64,000 bases of DNA from NCBI RefSeq assembly GCF_036507355.1, contig NZ_AP027877.1; one strand, 5' to 3'. The notes under the pieces were generated by a model that worked only from the letters and a program-made list of their open reading frames with translations, was not told where the DNA came from and searched no databases. This DNA comes from Escherichia coli (lineage in GTDB: Bacteria > Pseudomonadota > Gammaproteobacteria > Enterobacterales > Enterobacteriaceae). Shown here piece after piece: positions 1 to 38,614 of the stretch (position 1 is its first letter; every line of letters starts with the position of its first letter). The translations under genes were made by a program, and so were the position numbers.

Positions 1-1516
1 CGGCACGCGTATTCTTTCTGACTGGCTGGTGATTGAGTGTAGCGTTAACCCCGGCGAGACATTTCTGGATCGGATGATCGCGATGGTGGAAGGCGCACAG
101 CGACGTAAAACGCCGAACGAGATTGCCCTGACTATTCTGCTGATTGCCCTGACTATCGTCTTTTTACTGGCAACCGCCACGCTGTGGCCGTTTTCCGCGT
201 GGGGCGGTAATGCAGTCAGTGTAACGGTACTGGTGGCGCTGCTGGTCTGTCTGATCCCAACCACTATTGGCGGCCTGTTGTCAGCGATCGGCGTCGCCGG
301 GATGAGTCGGATGCTGGGCGCGAATGTGATTGCCACCAGCGGACGTGCAGTTGAAGCGGCAGGTGACGTTGACGTTCTGCTACTGGATAAAACCGGCACC
401 ATCACACTCGGTAACCGTCAGGCATCGGAGTTTATCCCCGCGCAGGGCGTGGATGAAAAAACGCTGGCTGACGCCGCACAACTGGCTTCGCTGGCTGATG
501 AAACGCCGGAAGGCCGCAGTATTGTGATCCTCGCCAAGCAACGTTTTAACCTGCGCGAGCGCGATGTGCAGTCGCTCCATGCCACCTTTGTACCGTTTAC
601 TGCGCAAAGCCGGATGAGCGGGATAAACATCGACAACCGCTTGATCCGTAAAGGTTCTGTCGATGCCATTCGCCGCCATGTTGAGGCTAACGGTGGTCAC
701 TTCCCTGCCGATGTTGATCAAAAAGTCGATCAGGTTGCGCGTCAGGGAGCCACGCCGCTGGTGGTGGTGGAAGGTTCTCGTGTGCTGGGCGTTATTGCGC
801 TGAAAGATATCGTCAAAGGCGGTATTAAAGAGCGCTTCGCCCAGCTGCGTAAAATGGGCATTAAAACGGTGATGATTACCGGCGATAACCGTCTGACTGC
901 CGCCGCGATTGCTGCGGAAGCGGGTGTCGATGATTTTCTCGCCGAAGCGACACCGGAGGCCAAGCTGGCATTGATCCGTCAGTATCAGGCGGAAGGCCGT
1001 TTGGTGGCGATGACCGGCGACGGCACCAACGATGCTCCGGCGCTGGCGCAGGCAGATGTCGCGGTGGCGATGAACTCCGGTACTCAGGCGGCGAAAGAAG
1101 CGGGCAATATGGTGGATCTCGACTCTAACCCGACCAAGTTGATCGAGGTGGTGCACATTGGCAAACAGATGCTGATGACCCGTGGCTCGCTAACCACCTT
1201 CAGCATTGCCAACGATGTGGCGAAATACTTCGCCATTATTCCGGCGGCATTCGCGGCAACGTATCCACAGTTAAATGCGCTGAACATCATGCGCCTGCAT
1301 TCGCCCGACTCAGCCATTCTCAGTGCGGTCATTTTCAACGCCTTGATTATCGTCTTTTTGATTCCCCTGGCGTTAAAAGGCGTGAGTTATAAACCGCTTA
1401 CCGCTTCTGCCATGTTGCGCCGTAACTTATGGATTTACGGTCTGGGTGGGCTGCTGGTGCCGTTTATTGGTATCAAAGTCATTGATTTACTGCTGACCGT
1501 TTGCGGTCTGGTGTGA
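1..1516 (+). CDS. kdpB: Potassium-transporting P-type ATPase subunit B, 3' portion (5' end lies upstream of the window)
   Basis: ORF 29..1516 is open to the window edge; P-type ATPase motifs DKTGT and GDGTND in the translation; followed by kdpC-kdpD-kdpE. Confidence 0.95.
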
Positions 1517-1524
1517 GGTTTACC

Positions 1525-2097
1525 ATGAGTGGATTACGTCCGGCATTATCGACATTTATCTTTCTGTTATTGATTACTGGCGGCGTTTACCCGCTGCTGA
1601 CCACTGTGCTGGGGCAATGGTGGTTTCCCTGGCAGGCCAATGGTTCGTTGATTCGTGAAGGTGATACGGTGCGCGGTTCGGCATTAATCGGGCAGAATTT
1701 TACCGGCAACGGCTATTTTCAGGGTCGCCCGTCGGCAACGGCAGAAATGCCCTATAATCCACAGGCTTCTGGCGGGAGCAATCTGGCAGTCAGTAACCCT
1801 GAGCTGAATAAACTAATAGCCGCACGCGTTGCTGCATTACGGGCCACTAACCCGGATGCCAGCGCGAACGTTCCGGTTGAACTGGTGACGGCGTCGGCAA
1901 GCGGGCTGGACAATAACATCACCCCGCAAGCGGCGGCCTGGCAGATCCCACGCGTAGCGAAAGCGCGTAATCTCAGCGTTGAACAGCTCACGCAACTGAT
2001 CGCAAAATACAGCCAACAACCGCTGGTGAAATATATCGGCCAGCCGGTCGTCAACATTGTCGAACTCAATCTGGCGCTGGATAAACTTGATGAATAA
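1525..2097 (+). CDS. kdpC: Kdp ATPase subunit C (190 aa)
   Basis: ORF 1501..2097; internal ATG at 1525 gives [15 protein letters not shown]... matching KdpC length; N-terminal transmembrane helix. Confidence 0.93.
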
Positions 2098-4774
2098 CGA
2101 ACCCTTACGTCCCGACCCCGATCGTCTGCTGGAACAAACTGCCGCGCCGCATCGGGGGAAGCTGAAAGTTTTCTTCGGTGCCTGCGCAGGCGTCGGGAAG
2201 ACCTGGGCGATGCTGGCAGAAGCCCAGCGACTGCGGGCGCAAGGGCTGGATATTGTGGTTGGCGTGGTAGAAACCCACGGGCGGAAAGATACCGCCGCCA
2301 TGCTGGAAGGGCTGGCTGTTCTGCCGCCAAAACGCCTGGCGTACCGTGGGCGGCACATCAGCGAGTTTGATCTCGATGCCGCCCTCGCCCGCCGTCCGGC
2401 GCTGATCTTAATGGACGAACTGGCGCACAGTAATGCGCCAGGTTCTCGTCATCCTAAACGCTGGCAGGATATCGAAGAACTGCTGGAAGCTGGCATTGAT
2501 GTTTTCACAACCGTCAACGTTCAGCATCTGGAAAGTCTGAATGATGTGGTCAGCGGCGTCACCGGAATTCAGGTACGGGAAACCGTGCCCGATCCTTTTT
2601 TCGATGCCGCCGACGACGTGGTGCTGGTGGACTTGCCCCCGGACGATCTGCGCCAGCGGCTGAAAGAAGGCAAAGTCTATATTGCCGGGCAGGCGGAGCG
2701 CGCCATTGAACATTTTTTCCGCAAAGGCAATCTGATCGCCCTGCGCGAACTGGCACTGCGCCGTACTGCCGATCGCGTTGATGAGCAAATGCGCGCCTGG
2801 CGGGGGCATCCTGGCGAAGAGAAAGTGTGGCACACGCGCGACGCGATCCTTTTATGCATCGGGCATAACACCGGCAGTGAGAAACTGGTCCGCGCGGCGG
2901 CGCGGCTGGCGTCGCGGCTGGGTAGCGTCTGGCACGCGGTGTATGTTGAAACCCCTGCCCTGCATCGCTTACCGGAGAAAAAACGTCGGGCAATTCTCAG
3001 CGCCTTACGTCTGGCGCAGGAGCTGGGCGCGGAGACGGCAACACTTTCTGATCCAGCGGAAGAGAAAGCGGTAGTGCGTTATGCCCGTGAACATAATCTC
3101 GGCAAGATTATTCTCGGTCGCCCAGCCTCGCGCCGCTGGTGGCGTCGGGAAACGTTTGCTGACCGACTGGCGCGCATCGCCCCCGATCTCGATCAGGTGC
3201 TGGTCGCGCTTGATGAACCACCCGCCCGCACGATTAACAACGCGCCGGATAGCCGCTCTTTTAAAGACAAGTGGCGGGTACAGATTCAGGGATGCGTGGT
3301 TGCCGCCGCGTTATGCGCCGTTATCACCTTAATTGCCATGCAGTGGCTGATGGCGTTTGATGCCGCCAATCTGGTGATGCTGTATCTGCTTGGCGTGGTG
3401 GTGGTGGCGCTATTTTATGGACGCTGGCCTTCGGTGGTTGCCACCGTCATTAATGTGGTGAGTTTCGATCTCTTTTTTATCGCCCCACGCGGCACGCTCG
3501 CCGTCTCTGATGTGCAATATCTGCTGACCTTCGCGGTGATGTTAACCGTCGGGCTGGTGATCGGGAACCTTACTGCTGGCGTGCGTTATCAGGCGCGGGT
3601 AGCCCGTTACCGCGAACAACGCACACGGCACTTATATGAAATGTCGAAAGCTCTGGCGGTGGGCCGCAGTCCGCAGGACATCGCCGCCACCAGCGAACAA
3701 TTTATTGCCTCCACGTTTCATGCCCGCAGCCAGGTATTGTTACCCGATGACAACGGTAAATTGCAGCCGTTAACGCATCCGCAAGGAATGACGCCGTGGG
3801 ACGATGCCATCGCGCAGTGGAGTTTTGATAAAGGCCTGCCTGCGGGTGCGGGCACCGACACGTTACCCGGCGTGCCATACCAGATTTTGCCGTTAAAAAG
3901 CGGTGAGAAAACTTACGGGCTGGTGGTGGTGGAACCGGGGAATCTGCGCCAGTTGATGATCCCGGAACAGCAGCGCCTGCTGGAGACGTTTACGCTGTTA
4001 GTCGCCAATGCCCTTGAGCGGCTGACGCTGACCGCCAGCGAAGAACAGGCGCGGATGGCAAGTGAACGTGAACAGATCCGCAACGCTCTGCTGGCGGCGC
4101 TTTCGCACGATTTACGCACTCCGCTCACGGTGTTGTTCGGTCAGGCAGAAATCTTAACGCTCGATCTGGCAAGCGAAGGATCGCCCCACGCCCGCCAGGC
4201 CAGCGAGATTCGTCAGCATGTGCTGAACACTACCCGACTGGTGAATAATCTACTGGATATGGCGCGAATTCAGTCCGGCGGCTTTAATTTGAAGAAAGAG
4301 TGGTTAACGCTGGAAGAAGTAGTCGGCAGCGCGCTGCAAATGCTGGAACCGGGTTTATCGTCGCCCATCAATCTTTCTCTGCCAGAACCGCTGACCTTAA
4401 TCCACGTTGACGGGCCACTCTTTGAACGGGTGCTGATTAATCTGCTGGAGAACGCGGTGAAATATGCGGGTGCGCAGGCCGAAATTGGTATCGATGCCCA
4501 CGTTGAGGGCGAAAATCTACAACTGGATGTCTGGGATAACGGCCCCGGCCTTCCGCCAGGCCAGGAGCAGACGATATTTGATAAGTTTGCTCGCGGGAAT
4601 AAAGAGTCGGCAGTACCGGGGGTAGGGCTTGGACTGGCAATTTGTCGGGCGATAGTGGATGTACACGGGGGCACTATTACCGCGTTCAACCGACCGGAAG
4701 GTGGTGCCTGTTTTCGTGTTACACTTCCCCAGCAAACTGCCCCTGAACTTGAAGAATTTCATGAGGATATGTGA
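2090..4774 (+). CDS. kdpD: Sensor histidine kinase KdpD (894 aa)
   Basis: ORF 2057..4774; ATG at 2090 gives [10 protein letters not shown]...; Walker-A-like GACAGVGKT, four TM helices, H-box LSHDLRTPL, HATPase domain; overlaps kdpC stop by 8 nt. Confidence 0.95.
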
Positions 4775-5448
4775 CAAACGTTCTGATTGTTGAAGATGAA
4801 CAAGCTATTCGTCGCTTTCTGCGCACGGCGCTGGAGGGCGACGGTATGCGCGTCTTTGAGGCCGAAACGCTGCAACGCGGCTTGCTGGAAGCGGCAACCC
4901 GTAAGCCAGATTTGATTATTCTCGATCTCGGCCTGCCCGATGGTGATGGGATTGAGTTTATCCGCGACCTGCGCCAGTGGAGCGCGGTGCCGGTGATAGT
5001 GCTTTCCGCACGCAGCGAAGAGAGCGACAAAATCGCCGCGCTGGATGCCGGAGCGGATGATTATCTGAGTAAGCCGTTTGGCATTGGCGAATTGCAGGCC
5101 CGTCTGCGCGTCGCATTACGCCGCCATTCAGCCACTGCCGCGCCCGATCCGCTGGTGAAATTTTCCGATGTGACCGTCGATTTAGCCGCCCGCGTGATCC
5201 ATCGGGGCGAGGAAGAGGTGCATCTCACGCCGATTGAGTTCCGCCTGCTGGCGGTGCTGCTCAACAATACCGGAAAAGTGCTCACCCAGCGCCAGCTCCT
5301 TAACCAGGTGTGGGGGCCAAACGCGGTCGAACACAGTCATTATTTGCGTATTTATATGGGGCATCTGCGACAAAAACTGGAGCAGGATCCCGCCCGCCCC
5401 CGCCATTTCATTACCGAAACCGGTATTGGGTATCGGTTTATGCTTTAG
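4771..5448 (+). CDS. kdpE: OmpR-family response regulator KdpE (225 aa), GTG start overlapping kdpD stop
   Basis: ORF 4771..5448; receiver domain (LIILDLGLPDGDG) plus winged-helix output domain; 4-nt overlap with kdpD. Confidence 0.95.
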   Translation: MTNVLIVEDEQAIRRFLRTALEGDGMRVFEAETLQRGLLEAATRKPDLIILDLGLPDGDGIEFIRDLRQWSAVPVIVLSARSEESDKIAALDAGADDYLSKPFGIGELQARLRVALRRHSATAAPDPLVKFSDVTVDLAARVIHRGEEEVHLTPIEFRLLAVLLNNTGKVLTQRQLLNQVWGPNAVEHSHYLRIYMGHLRQKLEQDPARPRHFITETGIGYRFML

Positions 5449-5747: not shown

Positions 5748-6242
5748 TTAATGTGTATTTATCGCTTTCAACTCTTGCTGGCATTTTTCTGACTGGCAGC
5801 GTCGCAACTCAATAATCCCGACATGCATCATCGAGCCAATAAAGCCGCTTTCGCTGACATAATCCTCATTAACTATCGGTCGAGTGCCGGGCTTGCCCTG
5901 GCAAACCAGCATAAAAAATGAGGTGTAGCACTGCCAGCCGGGATTTAAACCGGCTTTTTCTTGTGCTGACATATCGTGAAGATAAATAAGTTCTTTTTCG
6001 TTCCCGCCTGACAACTGCCAGCGGCGGGTATTATCAGGTAAGTTATCGCTACAACAATTTGTCTTACACCGGGAAGGCGCAATATTTACCGCAATGCTAC
6101 CCTTTAACCCTCTGGTTTTATCTTTAGGGGTCAGTAACCAGTCGCCAGCTAATGATGATTGTTCAGGTTGGGCACATGCAGTCAGCAGTAGTGTGGCGGC
6201 AATGAATGTTACTCTTACGACCAGACTCCTTTTGGTCTTCAT
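5748..6242 (-). CDS. ybfP: Small lipoprotein YbfP (164 aa)
   Basis: ORF 5748..6242; signal peptide with lipobox LLTAC-A; family member recalled from E. coli. Confidence 0.85.
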   Translation of the reverse strand: MKTKRSLVVRVTFIAATLLLTACAQPEQSSLAGDWLLTPKDKTRGLKGSIAVNIAPSRCKTNCCSDNLPDNTRRWQLSGGNEKELIYLHDMSAQEKAGLNPGWQCYTSFFMLVCQGKPGTRPIVNEDYVSESGFIGSMMHVGIIELRRCQSEKCQQELKAINTH

Positions 6243-15649: not shown

Positions 15650-15690
15650 AAAAAAAGCGGCAGAGAAGATCTCCACCGCTTTTGCCAGTC
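15650..15690 (-). terminator. Rho-independent terminator of nagE
   Basis: Minus strand reads hairpin gcggtggagatcttctctgccgc followed by a T9 tract. Confidence 0.7.
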
Positions 15691-15703
15691 CCGCGTCATT
15701 GTT

Positions 15704-15777
15704 GGATGCGCGTCTTATCCAACCAGGACTGAGCTTTTGTAGGCCTGATAAGACGCGTCAAGCGTCGCATCAGGCAT
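15704..15777. repeat. REP elements
   Basis: ggatgcgcgtcttatccaacc ... gtaggcctgataagacgcgtcaagcgtcgcatcaggcat. Confidence 0.8.
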
Positions 15778-22107: not shown

Positions 22108-22140
22108 AACCACGTCTCAGGACGTGGTTTCTTATTTTTA
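22108..22140 (+). terminator. Rho-independent terminator of the nagBACD operon
   Basis: aaccacgtctcaggacgtggtttcttattttt: hairpin plus T-tract 6 nt after the nagD stop. Confidence 0.75.
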
Positions 22141-22358
22141 CCCATCATTAAAATCATTCCATTCAATAAAACCCGCCAAAAATTATCGATCCATCAATAA
22201 ATACATCACCGCACCCTCCCCTTTTTCACAAATCAGCAATCACCATTACGTTTTTTATTTTTTCACCGCCAAATCGCTTGCGCACAGTGCTGCTTTGCGG
22301 CATTTTTTTAAACAAGCAAACACAACAAGCAACAAATACCAGGTTAACGGAGAAGGTT

Positions 22359-24402: not shown

Positions 24403-24479
24403 GGCTACGTAGCTCAGTTGGTTAGAGCACATCACTCATAATGATGGGGTCACAGGTTCGAATCCCGTCGTAGCCACCA
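24403..24479 (+). tRNA. metT: tRNA-Met (anticodon CAU, elongator)
   Basis: GGCTACGTAGCTCAGTTGG...CGTCGTAGCCACCA; cloverleaf with anticodon loop cuCAUaa; encoded CCA. Confidence 0.95.
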
Positions 24480-24487
24480 TCTTTTTT

Positions 24488-24572
24488 GCGGGAGTGGCGA
24501 AATTGGTAGACGCACCAGATTTAGGTTCTGGCGCCGCAAGGTGTGCGAGTTCAAGTCTCGCCTCCCGCACCA
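24488..24572 (+). tRNA. leuW: tRNA-Leu (anticodon UAG), class II with long variable arm
   Basis: GCGGGAGTGGCGAAATTGG...CTCGCCTCCCGCACCA; anticodon loop uuUAGgu. Confidence 0.95.
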
Positions 24573-24595
24573 TTCACCAGAAAGCGTTGTACGGA

Positions 24596-24670
24596 TGGGG
24601 TATCGCCAAGCGGTAAGGCACCGGTTTTTGATACCGGCATTCCCTGGTTCGAATCCAGGTACCCCAGCCA
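24596..24670 (+). tRNA. glnU: tRNA-Gln (anticodon UUG)
   Basis: TGGGGTATCGCCAAGCGGTAAGGCACCGGTTTTTGATACCGG...CCCCAGCCA. Confidence 0.95.
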
Positions 24671-24704
24671 TCTTCTTCGAGTAAGCGGTTCACCGCCCGG
24701 TTAT

Positions 24705-24779
24705 TGGGGTATCGCCAAGCGGTAAGGCACCGGTTTTTGATACCGGCATTCCCTGGTTCGAATCCAGGTACCCCAGCCA
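24705..24779 (+). tRNA. glnW: tRNA-Gln (anticodon UUG), duplicate of the preceding gene
   Basis: Same sequence as glnU; the upstream spacer is also duplicated. Confidence 0.95.
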
Positions 24780-24794
24780 TCGAAGAAACAATCT

Positions 24795-24871
24795 GGCTAC
24801 GTAGCTCAGTTGGTTAGAGCACATCACTCATAATGATGGGGTCACAGGTTCGAATCCCGTCGTAGCCACCA
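24795..24871 (+). tRNA. metU: tRNA-Met (anticodon CAU, elongator), second copy
   Basis: Same sequence as metT. Confidence 0.95.
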
Positions 24872-24919
24872 AATTCTGAATGTGTCGAATATGTTCGGCA
24901 AATTCAAAAACCAATTTGT

Positions 24920-24994
24920 TGGGGTATCGCCAAGCGGTAAGGCACCGGATTCTGATTCCGGCATTCCGAGGTTCGAATCCTCGTACCCCAGCCA
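24920..24994 (+). tRNA. glnV: tRNA-Gln (anticodon CUG)
   Basis: TGGGGTATCGCCAAGCGGTAAGGCACCGGATTCTGATTCCGG...CCCCAGCCA. Confidence 0.95.
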
Positions 24995-25031
24995 ATTTAT
25001 TCAAGACGCTTACCTTGTAAGTGCACCCAGT

Positions 25032-25106
25032 TGGGGTATCGCCAAGCGGTAAGGCACCGGATTCTGATTCCGGCATTCCGAGGTTCGAATCCTCGTACCC
25101 CAGCCA
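25032..25106 (+). tRNA. glnX: tRNA-Gln (anticodon CUG), second copy
   Basis: Same sequence as glnV. Confidence 0.95.
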
Positions 25107-29751: not shown

Positions 29752-30630
29752 ATGAGCGACGACAATTCACACAGTAGTGACACGATAAGCAACAAGAAGG
29801 GATTTTTCTCCCTGTTACTCAGCCAACTTTTCCACGGTGAACCGAAAAACCGTGACGAACTGCTGGCGCTGATCCGTGATTCCGGGCAGAACGACCTTAT
29901 CGACGAAGATACGCGCGATATGCTCGAAGGGGTGATGGACATCGCAGACCAACGCGTCCGCGACATCATGATCCCCCGCTCCCAGATGATTACCCTGAAA
30001 CGCAACCAGACGCTGGACGAATGCCTTGATGTCATCATCGAGTCCGCCCACTCACGTTTCCCGGTGATTAGCGAAGACAAAGATCACATTGAAGGGATTC
30101 TGATGGCGAAAGACTTGCTGCCGTTTATGCGCAGCGATGCTGAAGCCTTCAGCATGGACAAAGTGTTACGTCAGGCGGTTGTCGTTCCTGAAAGTAAGCG
30201 CGTAGACCGAATGCTGAAAGAGTTTCGCTCTCAGCGTTACCACATGGCGATCGTCATTGACGAATTCGGTGGGGTTTCCGGTCTGGTGACCATTGAAGAC
30301 ATCCTGGAACTGATTGTTGGTGAGATTGAAGACGAGTATGACGAAGAAGATGATATCGACTTCCGTCAGCTGAGTCGTCATACCTGGACCGTGCGCGCAC
30401 TGGCTTCCATTGAAGACTTCAACGAAGCGTTCGGCACCCACTTTAGCGATGAAGAAGTCGACACTATCGGTGGTCTGGTGATGCAGGCATTCGGGCATCT
30501 TCCAGCGCGTGGTGAAACCATCGACATCGACGGTTACCAGTTCAAAGTGGCGATGGCTGACAGTCGGCGTATTATTCAGGTTCATGTCAAAATCCCGGAT
30601 GACTCACCCCAGCCGAAGCTGGATGAATAA
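29752..30630 (+). CDS. corC: CBS-domain magnesium/cobalt efflux protein CorC/YbeX (292 aa)
   Basis: ORF 29752..30630; tandem CBS domains plus C-terminal CorC_HlyC domain. Confidence 0.95.
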
Positions 30631-30654
30631 AACCGAAACTGGATAGATAACTAC

Positions 30655-32193
30655 ATGGCTTTTGCCTCATTAATTGAACGCCAGCGCATTCGCCTGCTGC
30701 TGGCGTTATTATTCGGTGCCTGCGGAACGCTGGCCTTCTCTCCTTACGACGTCTGGCCTGCGGCGATTATTTCGCTGATGGGGCTTCAGGCGCTGACCTT
30801 TAATCGCCGTCCACTCCAGTCTGCCGCTATTGGCTTTTGCTGGGGATTTGGCCTCTTTGGCAGCGGTATTAACTGGGTCTATGTCAGCATCGCGACCTTT
30901 GGCGGAATGCCTGGCCCGGTTAACATCTTCCTGGTGGTACTGCTGGCGGCGTATTTGTCGCTGTATACCGGACTGTTTGCTGGCGTGCTGTCGCGCCTGT
31001 GGCCGAAAACCACCTGGCTGCGCGTGGCGATTGCCGCTCCTGCTCTCTGGCAAGTGACCGAGTTTCTGCGCGGTTGGGTACTGACAGGCTTCCCGTGGTT
31101 ACAGTTCGGCTATAGCCAGATTGACGGCCCGTTAAAAGGGCTGGCACCGATAATGGGCGTGGAAGCCATTAACTTCCTGCTGATGATGGTTAGTGGCCTG
31201 CTGGCACTGGCGTTGGTCAAACGCAACTGGCGTCCGCTGGTAGTGGCCGTCGTGCTGTTTGCCCTACCCTTCCCGCTGCGTTACATCCAATGGTTTACCC
31301 CGCAACCGGAGAAAACCATTCAGGTTTCGATGGTTCAGGGCGATATTCCGCAATCGCTGAAATGGGACGAAGGCCAGCTTCTTAATACGCTGAAGATTTA
31401 CTACAACGCAACGGCACCGCTGATGGGCAAATCATCGTTGATTATCTGGCCGGAGTCGGCGATAACCGATCTGGAAATTAATCAGCAACCGTTCCTCAAA
31501 GCACTGGACGGTGAGTTGCGTGATAAAGGGAGTACGCTGGTGACCGGGATTGTTGACGCGCGTCTTAATAAGCAGAACCGTTACGATACCTACAACACCA
31601 TCATCACACTGGGTAAAGGTGCACCGTACAGCTACGAATCAGCCGATCGCTATAACAAAAACCATCTGGTGCCGTTTGGCGAGTTTGTCCCGCTGGAGTC
31701 GATTCTGCGTCCGTTAGCACCGTTCTTTGATCTGCCGATGTCGTCGTTCAGCCGTGGGCCATATATCCAGCCGCCGCTGTCGGCAAATGGTATTGAGCTT
31801 ACTGCGGCTATTTGCTACGAGATCATTCTCGGCGAGCAAGTGCGCGATAACTTCCGCCCGGATACCGACTATCTGCTGACTATCTCCAACGATGCGTGGT
31901 TTGGTAAGTCTATTGGTCCATGGCAGCACTTCCAGATGGCGCGAATGCGTGCGCTGGAGCTGGCGCGCCCACTGTTGCGCAGCACCAACAACGGCATTAC
32001 GGCGGTGATTGGCCCGCAGGGTGAGATTCAGGCGATGATCCCGCAGTTCACCCGCGAGGTGTTAACCACTAACGTGACGCCGACCACCGGACTCACACCA
32101 TACGCACGTACCGGCAACTGGCCGCTGTGGGTGCTGACGGCACTGTTTGGTTTTGCTGCTGTGTTGATGAGTCTGCGTCAGCGACGTAAATAA
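30655..32193 (+). CDS. lnt: Apolipoprotein N-acyltransferase Lnt (512 aa)
   Basis: ORF 30655..32193; polytopic N-terminus plus CN-hydrolase domain with catalytic Cys (AAICYE). Confidence 0.96.
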
Positions 32194-32237
32194 CCCCTTC
32201 TTATCGTGCCGGAATACATCCCATATTTCGGCACGCT

Positions 32238-32267
32238 CACCGGATGCGGCATCAGTGCATTATCCGG
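32238..32267. repeat. REP-like palindrome in the lnt-gltI spacer
   Basis: caccggatgcggcatcagtgcattatccgg, a degenerate REP. Confidence 0.45.
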
Positions 32268-32589
32268 ATAACAATATTCTCCTATCCAACTTTGGCACAT
32301 CTATTGCTTTGTTATACAAGGCAAAGCTTTAACCAGCATCAGTACAACCCGGTTGCACCACAGCAATCCGCCGGTAGCACCAAAAGAGTGCATTTTAAGA
32401 ATTTTGCTTCGGAATGGTGCGGTGCACTTCGCAAAAACAAACAATAAAACATCAATATCTTTACATTTAGCCAAACTAAATGTTACCTAACAGTCACAAC
32501 ACTGCACAATAAAGTTGCAGACGATAACAACACAAACACTCACAACGGGTATCCATGCGTTCTTAACGCAGAAGATAAAGGAGTTGGAT

Positions 32590-33498
32590 ATGCAATTACG
32601 TAAACCTGCCACAGCAATCCTAGCCCTTGCGCTTTCCGCAGGACTGGCACAGGCAGATGACGCCGCCCCGGCAGCGGGCAGTACGCTGGACAAAATCGCC
32701 AAAAACGGCGTGATTGTCGTCGGTCACCGTGAATCTTCAGTACCTTTCTCTTATTACGACAATCAGCAAAAAGTGGTGGGTTATTCGCAGGATTACTCCA
32801 ACGCCATTGTTGAAGCAGTGAAAAAGAAACTCAACAAACCGGACTTGCAGGTGAAATTGATTCCGATCACCTCACAAAACCGTATTCCTCTTCTGCAAAA
32901 CGGCACTTTCGATTTTGAATGTGGTTCTACCACCAACAACGTCGAACGCCAAAAACAGGCGGCTTTCTCTGACACTATTTTCGTGGTCGGTACGCGCCTG
33001 TTGACCAAAAAGGGCGGCGATATCAAAGATTTTGCCGACCTGAAAGGCAAAGCCGTAGTCGTCACTTCCGGCACTACCTCTGAAGTTTTGCTCAACAAAC
33101 TGAATGAAGAGCAAAAAATGAATATGCGCATCATCAGCGCCAAAGATCACGGTGACTCTTTCCGTACCCTGGAAAGCGGTCGTGCCGTTGCCTTTATGAT
33201 GGATGATGCTCTGCTGGCCGGTGAACGTGCGAAAGCGAAGAAACCAGACAACTGGGATATCGTCGGCAAGCCGCAGTCTCAGGAAGCCTACGGTTGCATG
33301 TTGCGTAAAGACGATCCGCAGTTCAAAAAGCTGATGGATGACACTATCGCTCAGGTGCAGACCTCCGGCGAAGCGGAAAAATGGTTTGATAAATGGTTCA
33401 AAAATCCCATTCCGCCGAAAAACCTGAACATGAATTTCGAACTGTCAGACGAAATGAAAGCACTGTTCAAAGAACCGAATGACAAGGCACTGAACTAA
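32590..33498 (+). CDS. gltI: Glutamate/aspartate ABC transporter periplasmic binding protein GltI (302 aa)
   Basis: ORF 32515..33498; ATG at 32590 preceded by AAGGAG; signal peptide MQLRKPATAILALALSAGLAQA. Confidence 0.93.
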   Translation: MQLRKPATAILALALSAGLAQADDAAPAAGSTLDKIAKNGVIVVGHRESSVPFSYYDNQQKVVGYSQDYSNAIVEAVKKKLNKPDLQVKLIPITSQNRIPLLQNGTFDFECGSTTNNVERQKQAAFSDTIFVVGTRLLTKKGGDIKDFADLKGKAVVVTSGTTSEVLLNKLNEEQKMNMRIISAKDHGDSFRTLESGRAVAFMMDDALLAGERAKAKKPDNWDIVGKPQSQEAYGCMLRKDDPQFKKLMDDTIAQVQTSGEAEKWFDKWFKNPIPPKNLNMNFELSDEMKALFKEPNDKALN

Positions 33499-33654
33499 TT
33501 ACAAGAACCAGGGGCGGAAATTCTAGCCCTCTCGATTGTTACGTAGCACGGACAGACTATACGCCTGATGGTCGTTCCCCATCGGGCCTGAAAACCGCAA
33601 TACGCTGGGTAACAATCTTCGAGGGTAGCAGTTAACGCTGCTACCCTCTTTTTT
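33499..33654 (+). ncRNA. sroC: SroC sRNA (GcvB sponge) processed from the gltI-gltJ spacer; 5' end approximate
   Basis: The 169-bp gltI-gltJ spacer ends in hairpin gagggtagcagttaacgctgctaccctc plus T6; sequence recalled as the sroC locus of E. coli/Salmonella. Confidence 0.7.
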
Positions 33655-33667
33655 CTGGAGTAGATTT

Positions 33668-34408
33668 ATGTCTATAGACTGGAACTGGGGTATTTTTTTA
33701 CAACAAGCCCCGTTCGGCAACACCACCTATCTTGGTTGGATCTGGAGTGGTTTTCAGGTGACGATCGCTTTGTCGATCTGCGCCTGGATTATCGCTTTCC
33801 TCGTCGGTTCATTTTTCGGCATTTTACGTACCGTTCCAAACCGTTTTCTATCCGGTCTGGGTACGTTGTATGTCGAACTGTTCCGCAACGTGCCGTTGAT
33901 TGTGCAATTCTTTACCTGGTATCTGGTGATCCCGGAGCTGCTGCCGGAGAAAATCGGCATGTGGTTTAAGGCCGAGCTGGATCCCAATATTCAGTTTTTC
34001 CTTTCATCCATGCTCTGCCTGGGGCTGTTTACTGCGGCTCGCGTTTGCGAACAGGTACGCGCCGCGATTCAGTCGCTGCCGCGCGGGCAAAAAAATGCCG
34101 CGCTGGCGATGGGGCTGACGCTGCCGCAGGCTTACCGCTATGTACTGTTGCCTAATGCTTATCGCGTTATCGTCCCGCCGATGACTTCCGAGATGATGAA
34201 CCTGGTGAAAAACTCCGCCATCGCCTCGACTATCGGTCTGGTGGATATGGCGGCGCAGGCGGGTAAATTGCTCGATTACTCGGCCCACGCCTGGGAGTCG
34301 TTTACCGCCATTACGCTAGCGTATGTGTTGATTAACGCTTTTATCATGCTGGTGATGACGCTGGTTGAACGTAAAGTTCGCCTGCCCGGCAACATGGGGG
34401 GCAAATAA
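33668..34408 (+). CDS. gltJ: Glutamate/aspartate ABC transporter permease GltJ (246 aa)
   Basis: ORF 33668..34408; polar-amino-acid permease fold. Confidence 0.95.
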
Positions 34409-35082
34409 TGTACGAGTTTGACTGGAGTTCTATTGTCCCTTCCCTGCCGTATCTGCTGGATGGGCTGGTGATCACCCTGAAAATCACCGTCACGGCAGTC
34501 GTGATTGGTATTTTGTGGGGCACCATGCTGGCGGTGATGCGCTTGTCCAGCTTTGCGCCCGTAGCGTGGTTTGCCAAAGCCTACGTTAACGTATTCCGCT
34601 CGATTCCTTTAGTTATGGTTTTGCTGTGGTTTTACCTGATCGTGCCGGGTTTTCTGCAAAACGTGCTGGGATTATCACCAAAAAATGATATCCGTTTAAT
34701 TTCGGCGATGGTGGCGTTTTCGATGTTTGAAGCGGCCTACTATTCAGAGATTATCCGTGCTGGTATTCAAAGTATTTCTCGTGGTCAGTCGAGCGCCGCG
34801 CTGGCGTTGGGAATGACTCACTGGCAGTCGATGAAACTGATTATTCTGCCGCAGGCGTTCCGCGCGATGGTGCCGCTGCTGCTTACTCAGGGCATCGTAC
34901 TGTTCCAGGATACCTCACTGGTGTATGTGTTATCTCTGGCCGATTTCTTCCGTACCGCCTCAACCATTGGTGAGCGTGATGGTACGCAGGTTGAGATGAT
35001 CCTGTTTGCCGGATTTGTTTATTTCGTTATTAGCCTTAGCGCGTCGTTGTTGGTCAGCTACTTGAAAAGAAGGACAGCATAA
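34408..35082 (+). CDS. gltK: Glutamate/aspartate ABC transporter permease GltK (224 aa)
   Basis: ORF 34408..35082; 1-nt overlap with gltJ. Confidence 0.95.
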
Positions 35083-35807
35083 TGATTACCCTGAAAAATG
35101 TTTCAAAATGGTATGGTCACTTTCAGGTGCTGACCGACTGCTCAACCGAAGTGAAAAAAGGCGAAGTGGTGGTGGTTTGCGGCCCGTCTGGTTCCGGCAA
35201 ATCAACGCTGATTAAAACCGTCAACGGCCTCGAACCGGTGCAGCAAGGTGAAATCACCGTCGATGGTATCGTGGTTAACGACAAGAAAACCGATCTGGCA
35301 AAGCTGCGTTCCCGCGTCGGGATGGTATTCCAGCATTTCGAGCTGTTCCCTCATCTGTCGATTATCGAAAACCTGACCCTGGCGCAGGTGAAAGTGCTTA
35401 AACGCGATAAAGCACCCGCTCGTGAAAAAGCATTGAAATTGCTGGAGCGCGTGGGACTTTCCGCACATGCCAATAAATTTCCGGCACAGCTTTCCGGCGG
35501 TCAGCAGCAGCGTGTGGCGATCGCTCGCGCATTGTGTATGGATCCTATTGCCATGCTGTTCGACGAACCGACATCGGCGCTGGATCCGGAGATGATCAAC
35601 GAAGTGCTGGACGTAATGGTCGAACTGGCGAATGAAGGAATGACCATGATGGTGGTGACCCACGAAATGGGCTTTGCCCGTAAAGTGGCGAATCGGGTGA
35701 TCTTTATGGATGAGGGTAAAATTGTCGAAGACTCGCCGAAAGATGCGTTCTTCGATGATCCGAAATCGGACCGCGCAAAAGACTTCCTCGCGAAAATCCT
35801 GCATTAA
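35082..35807 (+). CDS. gltL: Glutamate/aspartate ABC transporter ATP-binding protein GltL (241 aa)
   Basis: ORF 35082..35807; Walker [13 protein letters not shown] signature LSGGQQQR, Walker [12 protein letters not shown]. Confidence 0.96.
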
Positions 35808-35924
35808 TCACTCTGGCGCGCATCCCCAAGTGCGCGCCATCTCACGCTTTATCGTTTCGCCCCTCGTATCTGTTACATCCTGGCGTTACCCTTGCCGCAA
35901 AGAAGCACACAACAAGGAGCAACA

Positions 35925-36860
35925 ATGGCACTGCCAATTCTGTTAGATTGCGACCCAGGTCATGATGACGCTATCGCAATAGTTCTCGCCCTCGCCTCAC
36001 CAGAGCTTGATGTCAAAGCAATTACGTCTTCCGCCGGAAACCAGACACCAGAAAAAACCTTACGCAATGTTCTGCGTATGCTGACCTTGCTTAATCGCAC
36101 CGATATTCCGGTAGCCGGCGGCGCAGTAAAACCGTTAATACGTGAGTTGATTATCGCGGACAATGTGCACGGCGAAAGCGGTCTCGACGGCCCGGCATTA
36201 CCGGAACCGGCGTTCGCACCGCAAAACTGTACGGCCGTAGAGCTAATGGCGAAAACGCTGCGTGAAAGTGCGGAACCTGTCACGATTGTGTCTACCGGAC
36301 CGCAAACTAACGTTGCCTTGCTGCTCAATAGCCATCCGGAACTGCATAGCAAAATTGCCCGTATCGTGATTATGGGTGGCGCTATGGGGCTGGGTAACTG
36401 GACGCCTGCGGCTGAATTTAATATTTACGTTGACCCGGAAGCGGCAGAAATTGTCTTCCAGTCAGGGATCCCGGTGGTGATGGCCGGTCTGGATGTTACT
36501 CACAAAGCACAAATCCACGTTGAAGACACTGAGCGTTTCCGCGCGATTGGCAACCCTGTTTCAACCATTGTTGCCGAACTGCTGGATTTCTTCCTCGAAT
36601 ATCATAAAGACGAAAAATGGGGCTTTGTCGGCGCACCGCTGCATGACCCATGCACCATCGCCTGGCTGTTGAAACCGGAGTTGTTTACCACTGTTGAGCG
36701 CTGGGTTGGCGTGGAAACACAAGGGAAATATACCCAGGGGATGACGGTTGTTGATTATTATTATCTGACTGGCAATAAACCGAATGCCACTGTAATGGTC
36801 GATGTTGATCGTCAGGGCTTTGTTGATTTACTGGCTGATCGTCTGAAATTTTACGCTTAA
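35925..36860 (+). CDS. rihA: Pyrimidine-specific ribonucleoside hydrolase RihA (311 aa)
   Basis: ORF 35892..36860; ATG at 35925 gives [16 protein letters not shown] (nucleoside-hydrolase aspartate cluster). Confidence 0.93.
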
Positions 36861-36943
36861 CACACGTCATTGATTAAGATCACCACGCGTTACCTGGGTG
36901 GTCTTAATCTGTTTATCTCTTTTTCTTTCAAGATATAAATGCA

Positions 36944-38614
36944 ATGGATAATGCAGAACTCGCCATTGGTATCGATCTCGGTACTACCAATAGTTTAATT
37001 GCCGTCTGGAAAGACGGTGCCGCGCAATTAATTCCAAATAAGTTCGGTGAATATTTAACACCATCCATAATTAGCATGGATGAAAATAATCATATTTTAG
37101 TCGGAAAACCGGCTGTATCACGGCGTACTTCGCATCCGGATAAAACGGCAGCGTTATTTAAACGTGCAATGGGCAGTAATACCAACTGGCGGTTAGGCAG
37201 CGACACATTTAACGCGCCAGAACTGTCCTCTTTGGTATTACGCTCATTAAAAGAAGATGCCGAAGAATTTCTGCAACGTCCGATTAAAGATGTGGTGATC
37301 TCTGTTCCGGCTTATTTCAGCGATGAACAACGCAAGCATACCCGTTTAGCAGCGGAGTTAGCCGGTTTAAATGCAGTTCGCCTGATTAATGAGCCAACGG
37401 CAGCTGCGATGGCGTATGGCCTACATACCCAACAAAATACCCGTTCGCTGGTGTTTGATCTCGGTGGCGGCACGTTTGACGTTACGGTGCTTGAGTACGC
37501 CACGCCGGTGATTGAAGTTCACGCCTCCGCTGGCGACAACTTCCTCGGTGGCGAAGATTTTACCCATATGCTGGTCGATGAGGTTTTAAAACGCGCGGAT
37601 GTCGCCAGGACCACGCTTAACGAGAGTGAACTGGCAGCCTTGTATGCCTGTGTGGAAGCGGCAAAATGTAGCAATCAATCGCTAATGCACATTCGCTGGC
37701 AGTACCAGGATGAAACGCGGGAATGCGAATTTTACGAGAACGAACTGGAAGATTTGTGGTTGCCGCTGCTCAATCGCTTGCGAGTGCCGATTGAACAGGC
37801 GTTGCGCGATGCGCGTCTGAAGCCGAGTCAAATCGACAGTCTGGTGCTGGTTGGCGGCGCGTCACAAATGCCGCTGGTGCAGCGAATCGCCGTGCGTCTG
37901 TTTGGCAAATTACCGTATCAAAGTTACGATCCGAGCACCATTGTCGCGCTGGGCGCAGCAATCCAGGCAGCCTGCCGCTTACGCAGTGAAGATATTGAAG
38001 AAGTGATCCTCACTGATATTTGCCCTTACTCGTTGGGCGTTGAGGTTAACCGTCAGGGCGTTTCCGGCATTTTCTCGCCGATTATTGAACGAAACACCAC
38101 TGTGCCCGTGTCGCGTGTAGAAACTTATTCAACCATGCACCCGGAACAGGATTCAATTACGGTTAACGTCTATCAGGGAGAAAACCACAAAGTTAAAAAC
38201 AACATTCTGGTGGAATCCTTCGATGTGCCGTTGAAGAAAACCGGGGCTTATCAGTCGATTGATATTCGCTTTAGTTATGATATCAACGGGTTGCTTGAAG
38301 TTGACGTGCTTCTGGAAGACGGCAGCGTTAAGTCCAGAGTGATTAACCACAGCCCGGTAACATTGAGCGCGCAGCAGATTGAAGAGAGTCGGACGCGGTT
38401 ATCCGCATTGAAAATTTATCCGCGCGATATGCTCATCAACCGCACCTTTAAGGCCAAACTGGAAGAGTTGTGGGCGCGGGCGCTGGGTGACGAGCGAGAA
38501 GAGATTGGCCGGGTGATCACCGATTTTGATTCGGCGTTGCAGTCAAACGATATGGCCCGCGTCGATGAGGTCAGGCGGCGGGCGAGCGATTATTTAGCCA
38601 TTGAGATCCCATAA
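36944..38614 (+). CDS. hscC: Atypical Hsp70-family chaperone HscC (556 aa)
   Basis: ORF 36944..38614; Hsp70 ATPase signatures IGIDLGTTNS and DLGGGTFDV; shorter than DnaK. Confidence 0.95.
   Translation: MDNAELAIGIDLGTTNSLIAVWKDGAAQLIPNKFGEYLTPSIISMDENNHILVGKPAVSRRTSHPDKTAALFKRAMGSNTNWRLGSDTFNAPELSSLVLRSLKEDAEEFLQRPIKDVVISVPAYFSDEQRKHTRLAAELAGLNAVRLINEPTAAAMAYGLHTQQNTRSLVFDLGGGTFDVTVLEYATPVIEVHASAGDNFLGGEDFTHMLVDEVLKRADVARTTLNESELAALYACVEAAKCSNQSLMHIRWQYQDETRECEFYENELEDLWLPLLNRLRVPIEQALRDARLKPSQIDSLVLVGGASQMPLVQRIAVRLFGKLPYQSYDPSTIVALGAAIQAACRLRSEDIEEVILTDICPYSLGVEVNRQGVSGIFSPIIERNTTVPVSRVETYSTMHPEQDSITVNVYQGENHKVKNNILVESFDVPLKKTGAYQSIDIRFSYDINGLLEVDVLLEDGSVKSRVINHSPVTLSAQQIEESRTRLSALKIYPRDMLINRTFKAKLEELWARALGDEREEIGRVITDFDSALQSNDMARVDEVRRRASDYLAIEIP

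Follow-up and report, generated by a model that had tools for sequence, protein, structure and literature searches.

SroC was reportedly discovered in E. coli in 2003, and its mechanism is said to have been solved in 2015. Published experiments, most of them in Salmonella, account for its dependence on RNase E and Hfq, its effect on the decay of GcvB and its growth phenotype on peptides: RNase E frees SroC from the gltI transcript, a step that depends on 5'-P and on Hfq; GcvB has a half-life of 1.7 min, which lengthens to more than 15 min when sroC is missing; and a sroC mutant grows more slowly on peptides (PMC4474525). The 3' end of SroC is a leaky Rho-independent terminator in the gltI-gltJ spacer, and the sites through which it pairs with GcvB are 7-8 nt long, lying 14 nt apart in SroC and far apart in GcvB (PMC4474525). 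Chromosomal point mutants of sroC stabilise GcvB as much as a deletion does, and the E. coli homologues of GcvB and SroC are equally functional (PMC4474525). RIL-seq on Hfq in stationary-phase E. coli yielded 67,138 GcvB-SroC chimeras, amounting to up to ~70% of GcvB reads (PMC9299463), and SroC is also reported as an antagonist of MgrR and a repressor of fliE and flhBAE (PMC9438474).

Other mRNA-derived small RNAs, such as SdhX, OppZ, NarS, and MalH, are promoter-less, with a 5' end made by RNase E and a 3' end provided by the terminator of the host transcript (PMC9438474). SroC departs from most processed small RNAs in that its main target is itself a small RNA rather than an mRNA (PMC9438474), and from those derived from operon ends in that it arises from an internal operon terminator (PMC4474525). 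The chbBC mRNA trap of ChiX is comparable to SroC, being a transcript-derived RNA that pairs with an Hfq-dependent small RNA and thereby de-represses its regulon; however, chbBC pairing alters ChiX's 3' terminator region and renders ChiX susceptible to PNPase, whereas SroC brings about the decay of its partner by RNase E without being consumed itself (PMC4474525).

The locus described here lies in the window (the whole 64-kb stretch of DNA that was analysed) between the TAA of gltI at 33496-33498 and the ATG of gltJ at 33668. As read from the sequence and its open reading frames, the spacer runs from 33499 to 33667 and measures exactly the 169 bp given in the preliminary description. The SroC identity proposed there was upheld by the very covariance-model search that had been suggested as its check: when the whole window was scanned against Rfam 15, RF00369 (sroC) was matched over model positions 1-163 of 163, not truncated, at 170.8 bits (E 7e-36, gathering cut-off 45), and beyond sroC no Rfam family reached its gathering score over the spacer. 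In the curated record of K-12 MG1655, the orthologous 163-nt ncRNA sroC (b4763) stands at 686681-686843 and overlaps the last 5 nt of gltI; the two copies are identical at 162 of 163 positions and agree in place, length, ends relative to the gltI stop, fold, GcvB sites, and terminator. A single base differs among 201 aligned, T33524 instead of C (C31U in SroC numbering), a variant common to O157:H7 strains, and SroC is 100% identical in the O157:H7 strains PV15-279 and RIMD 0509939. Of 5,426 complete E. coli genomes, 5,421 contain the sroC stretch, and the median number of places per genome is one, by which a repeat or mobile-element origin is ruled out. The spacer is thus almost certainly the sroC gene of an O157:H7-like E. 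coli, specifying a GcvB sponge cut from the gltI mRNA.

Table 1. Features of the gltIJKL operon and its internal small RNA, in window coordinates.
Feature	Position	Strand	Basis
CA-rich GcvB R1 target site in the gltI leader, repressed arm of the loop	32515..32547	+	RNAduplex, sequence
gltI, periplasmic Glu/Asp-binding protein, 302 aa, SroC host mRNA	32590..33498	+	ORF; K-12 annotation 909 bp
SroC small RNA, 163 nt	33494..33656	+	Rfam RF00369; K-12 sroC b4763 orthologous
Stem-loop 1, SroC 18-37	33511..33530	+	predicted fold
Stem-loop 2, long interrupted hairpin, SroC 41-124, bearing both GcvB sites	33534..33617	+	predicted fold
GcvB site GGACAGAC, 8 nt, SroC 57-64, complementary to GcvB 156-163 (R3/SL4)	33550..33557	+	exact Watson-Crick
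GcvB site UCGUUCC, 7 nt, SroC 79-85, complementary to GcvB 13-19 (SL1)	33572..33578	+	exact match
Rho-independent terminator, stem 33621-33648 plus T6 33649-33654	33621..33654	+	terminator scan, fold
gltJ, RBS GGAG 33657-33660 and CDS 33668-34408	33657..34408	+	sequence, ORF, K-12 annotation
gltK	34408..35082	+	ORF; K-12 annotation
gltL	35082..35807	+	ORF; K-12 annotation

SroC in this position is an already known gene and an ordinary one, without novelty, and as a discovery the locus matters little; its value is that of a clean positive control, in which a reader of raw sequence recognised an RNA gene inside an operon and had each of its proposed checks borne out. The RefSeq PGAP records of E. 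coli that were matched list gltI and gltJ only, without sroC, the ncRNA being named only in the curated K-12 record. The missing feature is an annotation gap and not a biological difference.

The RNA takes in the last 5 nt of gltI (AC followed by the TAA stop) and finishes 11 nt before the gltJ ATG, so that it occupies the place characteristic of SroC, between gltI and gltJ on the operon strand with its 5' end at the gltI stop codon. Placing it at 33499-33654, as had been done at the outset, was right as to location and inexact as to both ends, by 5 nt on the 5' side and by 2 nt on the 3' side. Similarly, an origin by "processing or termination" of gltI transcripts named two genuine steps but offered as alternatives what are both required, termination for the 3' end and RNase E for the 5' end. 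A consensus scan of the plus strand from 30000 to 37000, which is a weak test, returned no sigma-70-like promoter, and this fits an origin of SroC by processing, the 5'-P end of the RNA being known from experiments (PMC4474525). The lack of a stable small transcript, which had been named in advance as evidence against SroC, is contradicted by the literature, a stable ~160-nt SroC having been repeatedly detected in E. coli, Salmonella, and Klebsiella (PMC4474525).

The start of gltI was set at the ATG at 32590 by the K-12 length of 909 bp, with AAGGAG at 32578-32583; the mechanical open reading frame begins earlier, at a TTG. gltJ is expressed only from transcripts that read through the SroC terminator, and gltK and gltL form the remainder of the gltIJKL operon. 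Further upstream, lnt ends at 32193, and the IS5D element (1,195 bp) that K-12 carries ~100 bp upstream of the gltI ATG is absent from the window, where the empty site is marked by the junction CCTAA (containing CTAA) at 32486-32490.

Fold prediction for the RNA at 33494-33656 gave a 17-nt single-stranded 5' end followed by three elements, namely the two stem-loops and the terminator of Table 1. The minimum free energy was -64.1 kcal/mol, whereas shuffled sequences averaged -40.4 (z = -5.86); of 200 shuffles, not one was as good. The strong mid-operon terminator with a T6 tract that had been noticed at first reading, gagggtagcagttaacgctgctaccctc, was recovered with its hairpin at 33621-33648 and T6 at 33649-33654. 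This Rho-independent terminator inside the operon forms the 3' end of SroC; it covers SroC 128-155 with 12 pairs (7 of them G-C), a 4-nt loop, and a U-tail that presumably also serves as the Hfq-binding tail. Between 30000 and 37000 the scan lists 14 terminator-like sites, more than the 7.9 (sd 2.8) that shuffling yields on average, and the stem in SroC is the longest and the most G-C-rich among them. The sole difference from K-12, T33524, converts the pair G23-C31 of stem-loop 1 into G23-U31 and leaves the predicted structure the same for both alleles (-64.1 kcal/mol in the window vs -66.3 kcal/mol in K-12).

Homologues were sought across GTDB, each species being represented by one genome, using a pattern in which SroC 53-60, 63-68, and 97-104 are fixed and all other positions are free. 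Forty of the 42 resulting loci belong to Enterobacteriaceae, spread over Escherichia, Citrobacter, Kluyvera, Klebsiella, Raoultella, Enterobacter-like genomes, and Superficieibacter. The remaining two, from an alphaproteobacterial MAG (L017) and an OM182-clade bacterium (L030), share only the pattern, have no Rfam match, and were discarded as chance hits, of which about two had been estimated for a pattern of that size. RF00369 was matched by 13 of the 13 enterobacterial loci tested, at 141-177 bits, and in C. braakii (L011), the one locus of the 40 whose flanks were checked, gltI lies upstream and gltJ downstream. Salmonella was not retrieved by the pattern scan, the sequence of its SroC differing enough to escape it; in S. 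Typhimurium the operon context, the terminator-made 3' end, the RNase E-made 5' end, and the two GcvB sites 14 nt apart are nonetheless the same (PMC4474525). For Yersinia pestis, a homologue that is truncated and inactive has been described (PMC4474525).

The 41 aligned sequences come from fairly close relatives, and the fold laid over them was taken from the window sequence, which favours that fold in the slide control. Across the 40 homologues, 92.4% of cells were paired under the window fold, as opposed to 35.5-51.7% when the 3' partners were slid by 1-3 columns; the covariation score was 0.185 against 0.042-0.066 for the slid partners, and 0 of 500 shuffles reached the observed value. In stem-loop 2, helix 2 was 91.5% paired with four pairs changed on both sides, and helix 5, its apical stem, was 99.2% paired with three pairs so changed, one example in the apical stem occurring as UA in 13, AU in 11, and GC in 10 sequences. 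The helix of stem-loop 1 varies between genera, both sides having changed at three pairs, and the terminator (helix 6) was 98.7% paired. The apical loop GGTCGTTCCCC, although free in the search pattern, is invariant in 40 of 40 homologues, and an invariant loop on a covarying stem is the pattern to expect if a structured RNA uses its loop for a sequence-specific contact.

Genera differ in the terminator stem (alignment columns 136-165): in Escherichia and Kluyvera it is extended by CAG...CTG, 6-9 nt more, and Citrobacter, Klebsiella, and Raoultella carry the shorter hairpin GGGTAG-CGCTG-CTACCC. Such a difference could influence the leakiness of the terminator and hence the ratio of SroC to gltJKL. 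In three Citrobacter loci, L011 (2024-2150, minus strand), L026, and L028, an insertion of ~126 bp separates the gltI stop from stem-loop 1 and takes the place of the usual SroC 5' end (ACUAAUUA...), the Rfam score still being ~149 bits in L011 and L028. We take the insert to resemble an ERIC/IRU repeat.

The search for GcvB-complementary stretches that the preliminary description had recommended, conducted with the K-12 gcvB sequence (gcvB itself lies outside the window), found both mapped sites. They are separated by SroC 65-78, a gap of 14 nt as in PMC4474525. The local duplex of SroC 57-64 with GcvB 156-163 was calculated at -15.3 kcal/mol, with C60 (33553) opposite GcvB G160, and that of SroC 79-85 with GcvB 13-19 at -10.9 kcal/mol, with C84 (33577) opposite GcvB G14. 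In the predicted fold, SroC 79-85 constitutes the entire apical loop of stem-loop 2, each base having an unpaired probability of 0.98-1.00, and SroC 57-64 lies partly in an internal bulge; the accessibility of both sites agrees with published probing (PMC4474525). The compensatory mutants made in Salmonella, SroC C63G with GcvB G160C and SroC C87G with GcvB G14C, abolish and then restore regulation (PMC4474525). If, as we infer, Salmonella numbering equals window numbering plus 3, the mutated cytosines correspond to C60 (33553) and C84 (33577) and the protected guanosines to G58, G62, and G81. Conservation of SroC 57-64 is partly built in because the search pattern fixes part of the site; the two bases within it that the pattern leaves free are AG in 40 of 40 homologues.

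In total, two 8-mers and two 7-mers of SroC are complementary to GcvB, which is insignificant on its own, an 8-mer occurring in 571 of 2,000 dinucleotide shuffles (29%) and at least four 7-mers in 103 of 2,000 (5%). Since such complementarity is not rare by chance, the argument is carried by the match to the mapped sites and by conservation. The two further matches, of SroC 101-108 with the GcvB terminator (189-196) and of SroC 146-152, inside SroC's own terminator stem, are probably due to chance. When SroC or the gltI leader was set against GcvB at full length in RNAduplex, the duplexes obtained were long and physically meaningless, and the local calculations were used instead.

The chance level of the short complementarity also speaks for the reading of the spacer as merely an intercistronic attenuator, yielding more GltI than GltJKL, with the ~160-nt RNA an inert remnant of decay that its structure protects. 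In the same direction, the ratio of binding protein to membrane components is indeed set by the terminator (PMC4474525), and SroC was at first considered a processed fragment (PMC9438474). Against this, neither the 7-nt loop nor its flanks vary in any of the 40 homologues while the stem compensates, the opposite of what a merely protective hairpin would show, and the published compensatory mutagenesis of SroC and GcvB, together with the point mutants, has already refuted the notion (PMC4474525); it is accordingly considered highly improbable. More remote still, to the point of being scarcely credible, is that the spacer encodes a small protein, either in a minus-strand 67-codon ORF at 33523-33726 or in a short plus-strand ORF. 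The minus strand does contain a mechanical ORF of 67 aa beginning with GTG; however, it overlaps the start of gltJ on the opposite strand, frame-breaking indels occur among the homologues (Escherichia having 7 nt more than Citrobacter in the terminator, and 1-3-nt differences around stem-loop 1), and substitutions fall in compensatory pairs rather than in third codon positions.

A regulated cis-acting switch, in which conserved bases outside the GcvB sites would bind a factor or ligand adjusting the balance of termination and read-through, and with it both SroC output and gltJKL expression, would supplement the SroC explanation rather than replace it, and is regarded as unlikely. The possibility was raised by the authors of the SroC paper themselves (PMC4474525), and many positions outside the GcvB sites and unfixed by the pattern are invariant in 40 of 40 homologues (C34-T37, C40-T43, A122-G128, and G130-G135 in SroC numbering), as are several pairs within the stems (helix 3, and 5 of the 13 pairs in helix 2). 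The homologues are, however, fairly close relatives, which makes invariance weak evidence; nothing points to a ligand or factor; the Rfam scan placed no other family over the spacer at gathering score; and recognition by Hfq or RNase E, or pairing with the partners MgrR, fliE, and flhBAE (PMC9438474), could explain the extra conservation equally well. That the conserved bases in question are themselves a factor- or ligand-dependent termination switch at the gltI-gltJ junction is quite doubtful. Were it so, the cell would actively set the level of SroC, and hence of GcvB, and SroC would not be a mere mirror of gltI transcription.

Under the SroC reading, to which the window contributes the family, the orthology, the fold with its covariation, the presence, accessibility, and conservation of the pairing sites, and the leader site, transcription starting at the gltI promoter would either stop at the leaky terminator at 33621-33654 or continue into gltJKL. 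The terminated gltI transcript would be cut by RNase E just before the gltI stop codon, in a manner dependent on a 5'-monophosphate and on Hfq, and the cleavage would free the stable, tightly folded 163-nt RNA. Together with Hfq, SroC would pair with GcvB, 57-64 with 156-163 and the loop 79-85 with 13-19, and thereby expose GcvB to RNase E, such that GcvB would be degraded and SroC would survive. The loss of GcvB would de-repress many mRNAs for amino-acid and peptide transporters and biosynthesis, including gltI itself through the CA-rich site at 32515-47, and because repression of gltI would be lifted in this way, a positive feedback loop would result.

The window contains the two arms of the feedback loop described in the literature. 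The gltI leader site, when paired with GcvB 63-92, gave -35.7 kcal/mol (RNAduplex), surpassing every one of 3,198 41-nt windows sampled over the 64 kb, among which the best value was -31.8. The CA-rich GcvB site of gltI has been described (PMC4474525), and gltI is an R1 target verified in Salmonella whose site is conserved in E. coli (PMC9299463). A further CA-rich stretch, AAACAAGCAAACACAACAAGCAACAAATACCA at 22301-22341, lies 18-58 nt upstream of the asnB start (~22359) and gave -29.2 kcal/mol with the GcvB R1 seed, being among the best complements of that seed in the whole window. As GcvB R1 has been verified to target asnB in E. coli (PMC9299463), this stretch indicates that the window holds a second member of the regulon de-repressed by SroC.

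Several minor observations concern the rest of the window. kdpB (cut by the window start), kdpC, kdpD, and kdpE (29-5448, plus strand) directly abut ybfP (5748-6242, minus strand), and the K-12 segment ybfG/ybfI-potE-speF-speFL (~715947-720822) has no counterpart in the window; the K-12 ybfI pseudogene matches the 3' end of the window's kdpE (5305-5446) at 89%. A dispersed intergenic repeat of ~117 bp at 13680-13796 matches K-12 715251-715366 and 699420-699535 at 88-91%, and small intergenic indels relative to K-12 occur at ~15681-15752 and ~22129-22160. Seven tRNA genes at 24403-25103 (plus strand) correspond to metT-leuW-glnU-glnW-metU-glnV-glnX of K-12. Finally, the Rfam cspA thermoregulator model was matched at 62792-63234 on the minus strand with 127.6 bits (cut-off 78); judged by position, this match represents the leader, CDS, and terminator of the cspA paralogue cspE (K-12 657292-657501) and not cspA.
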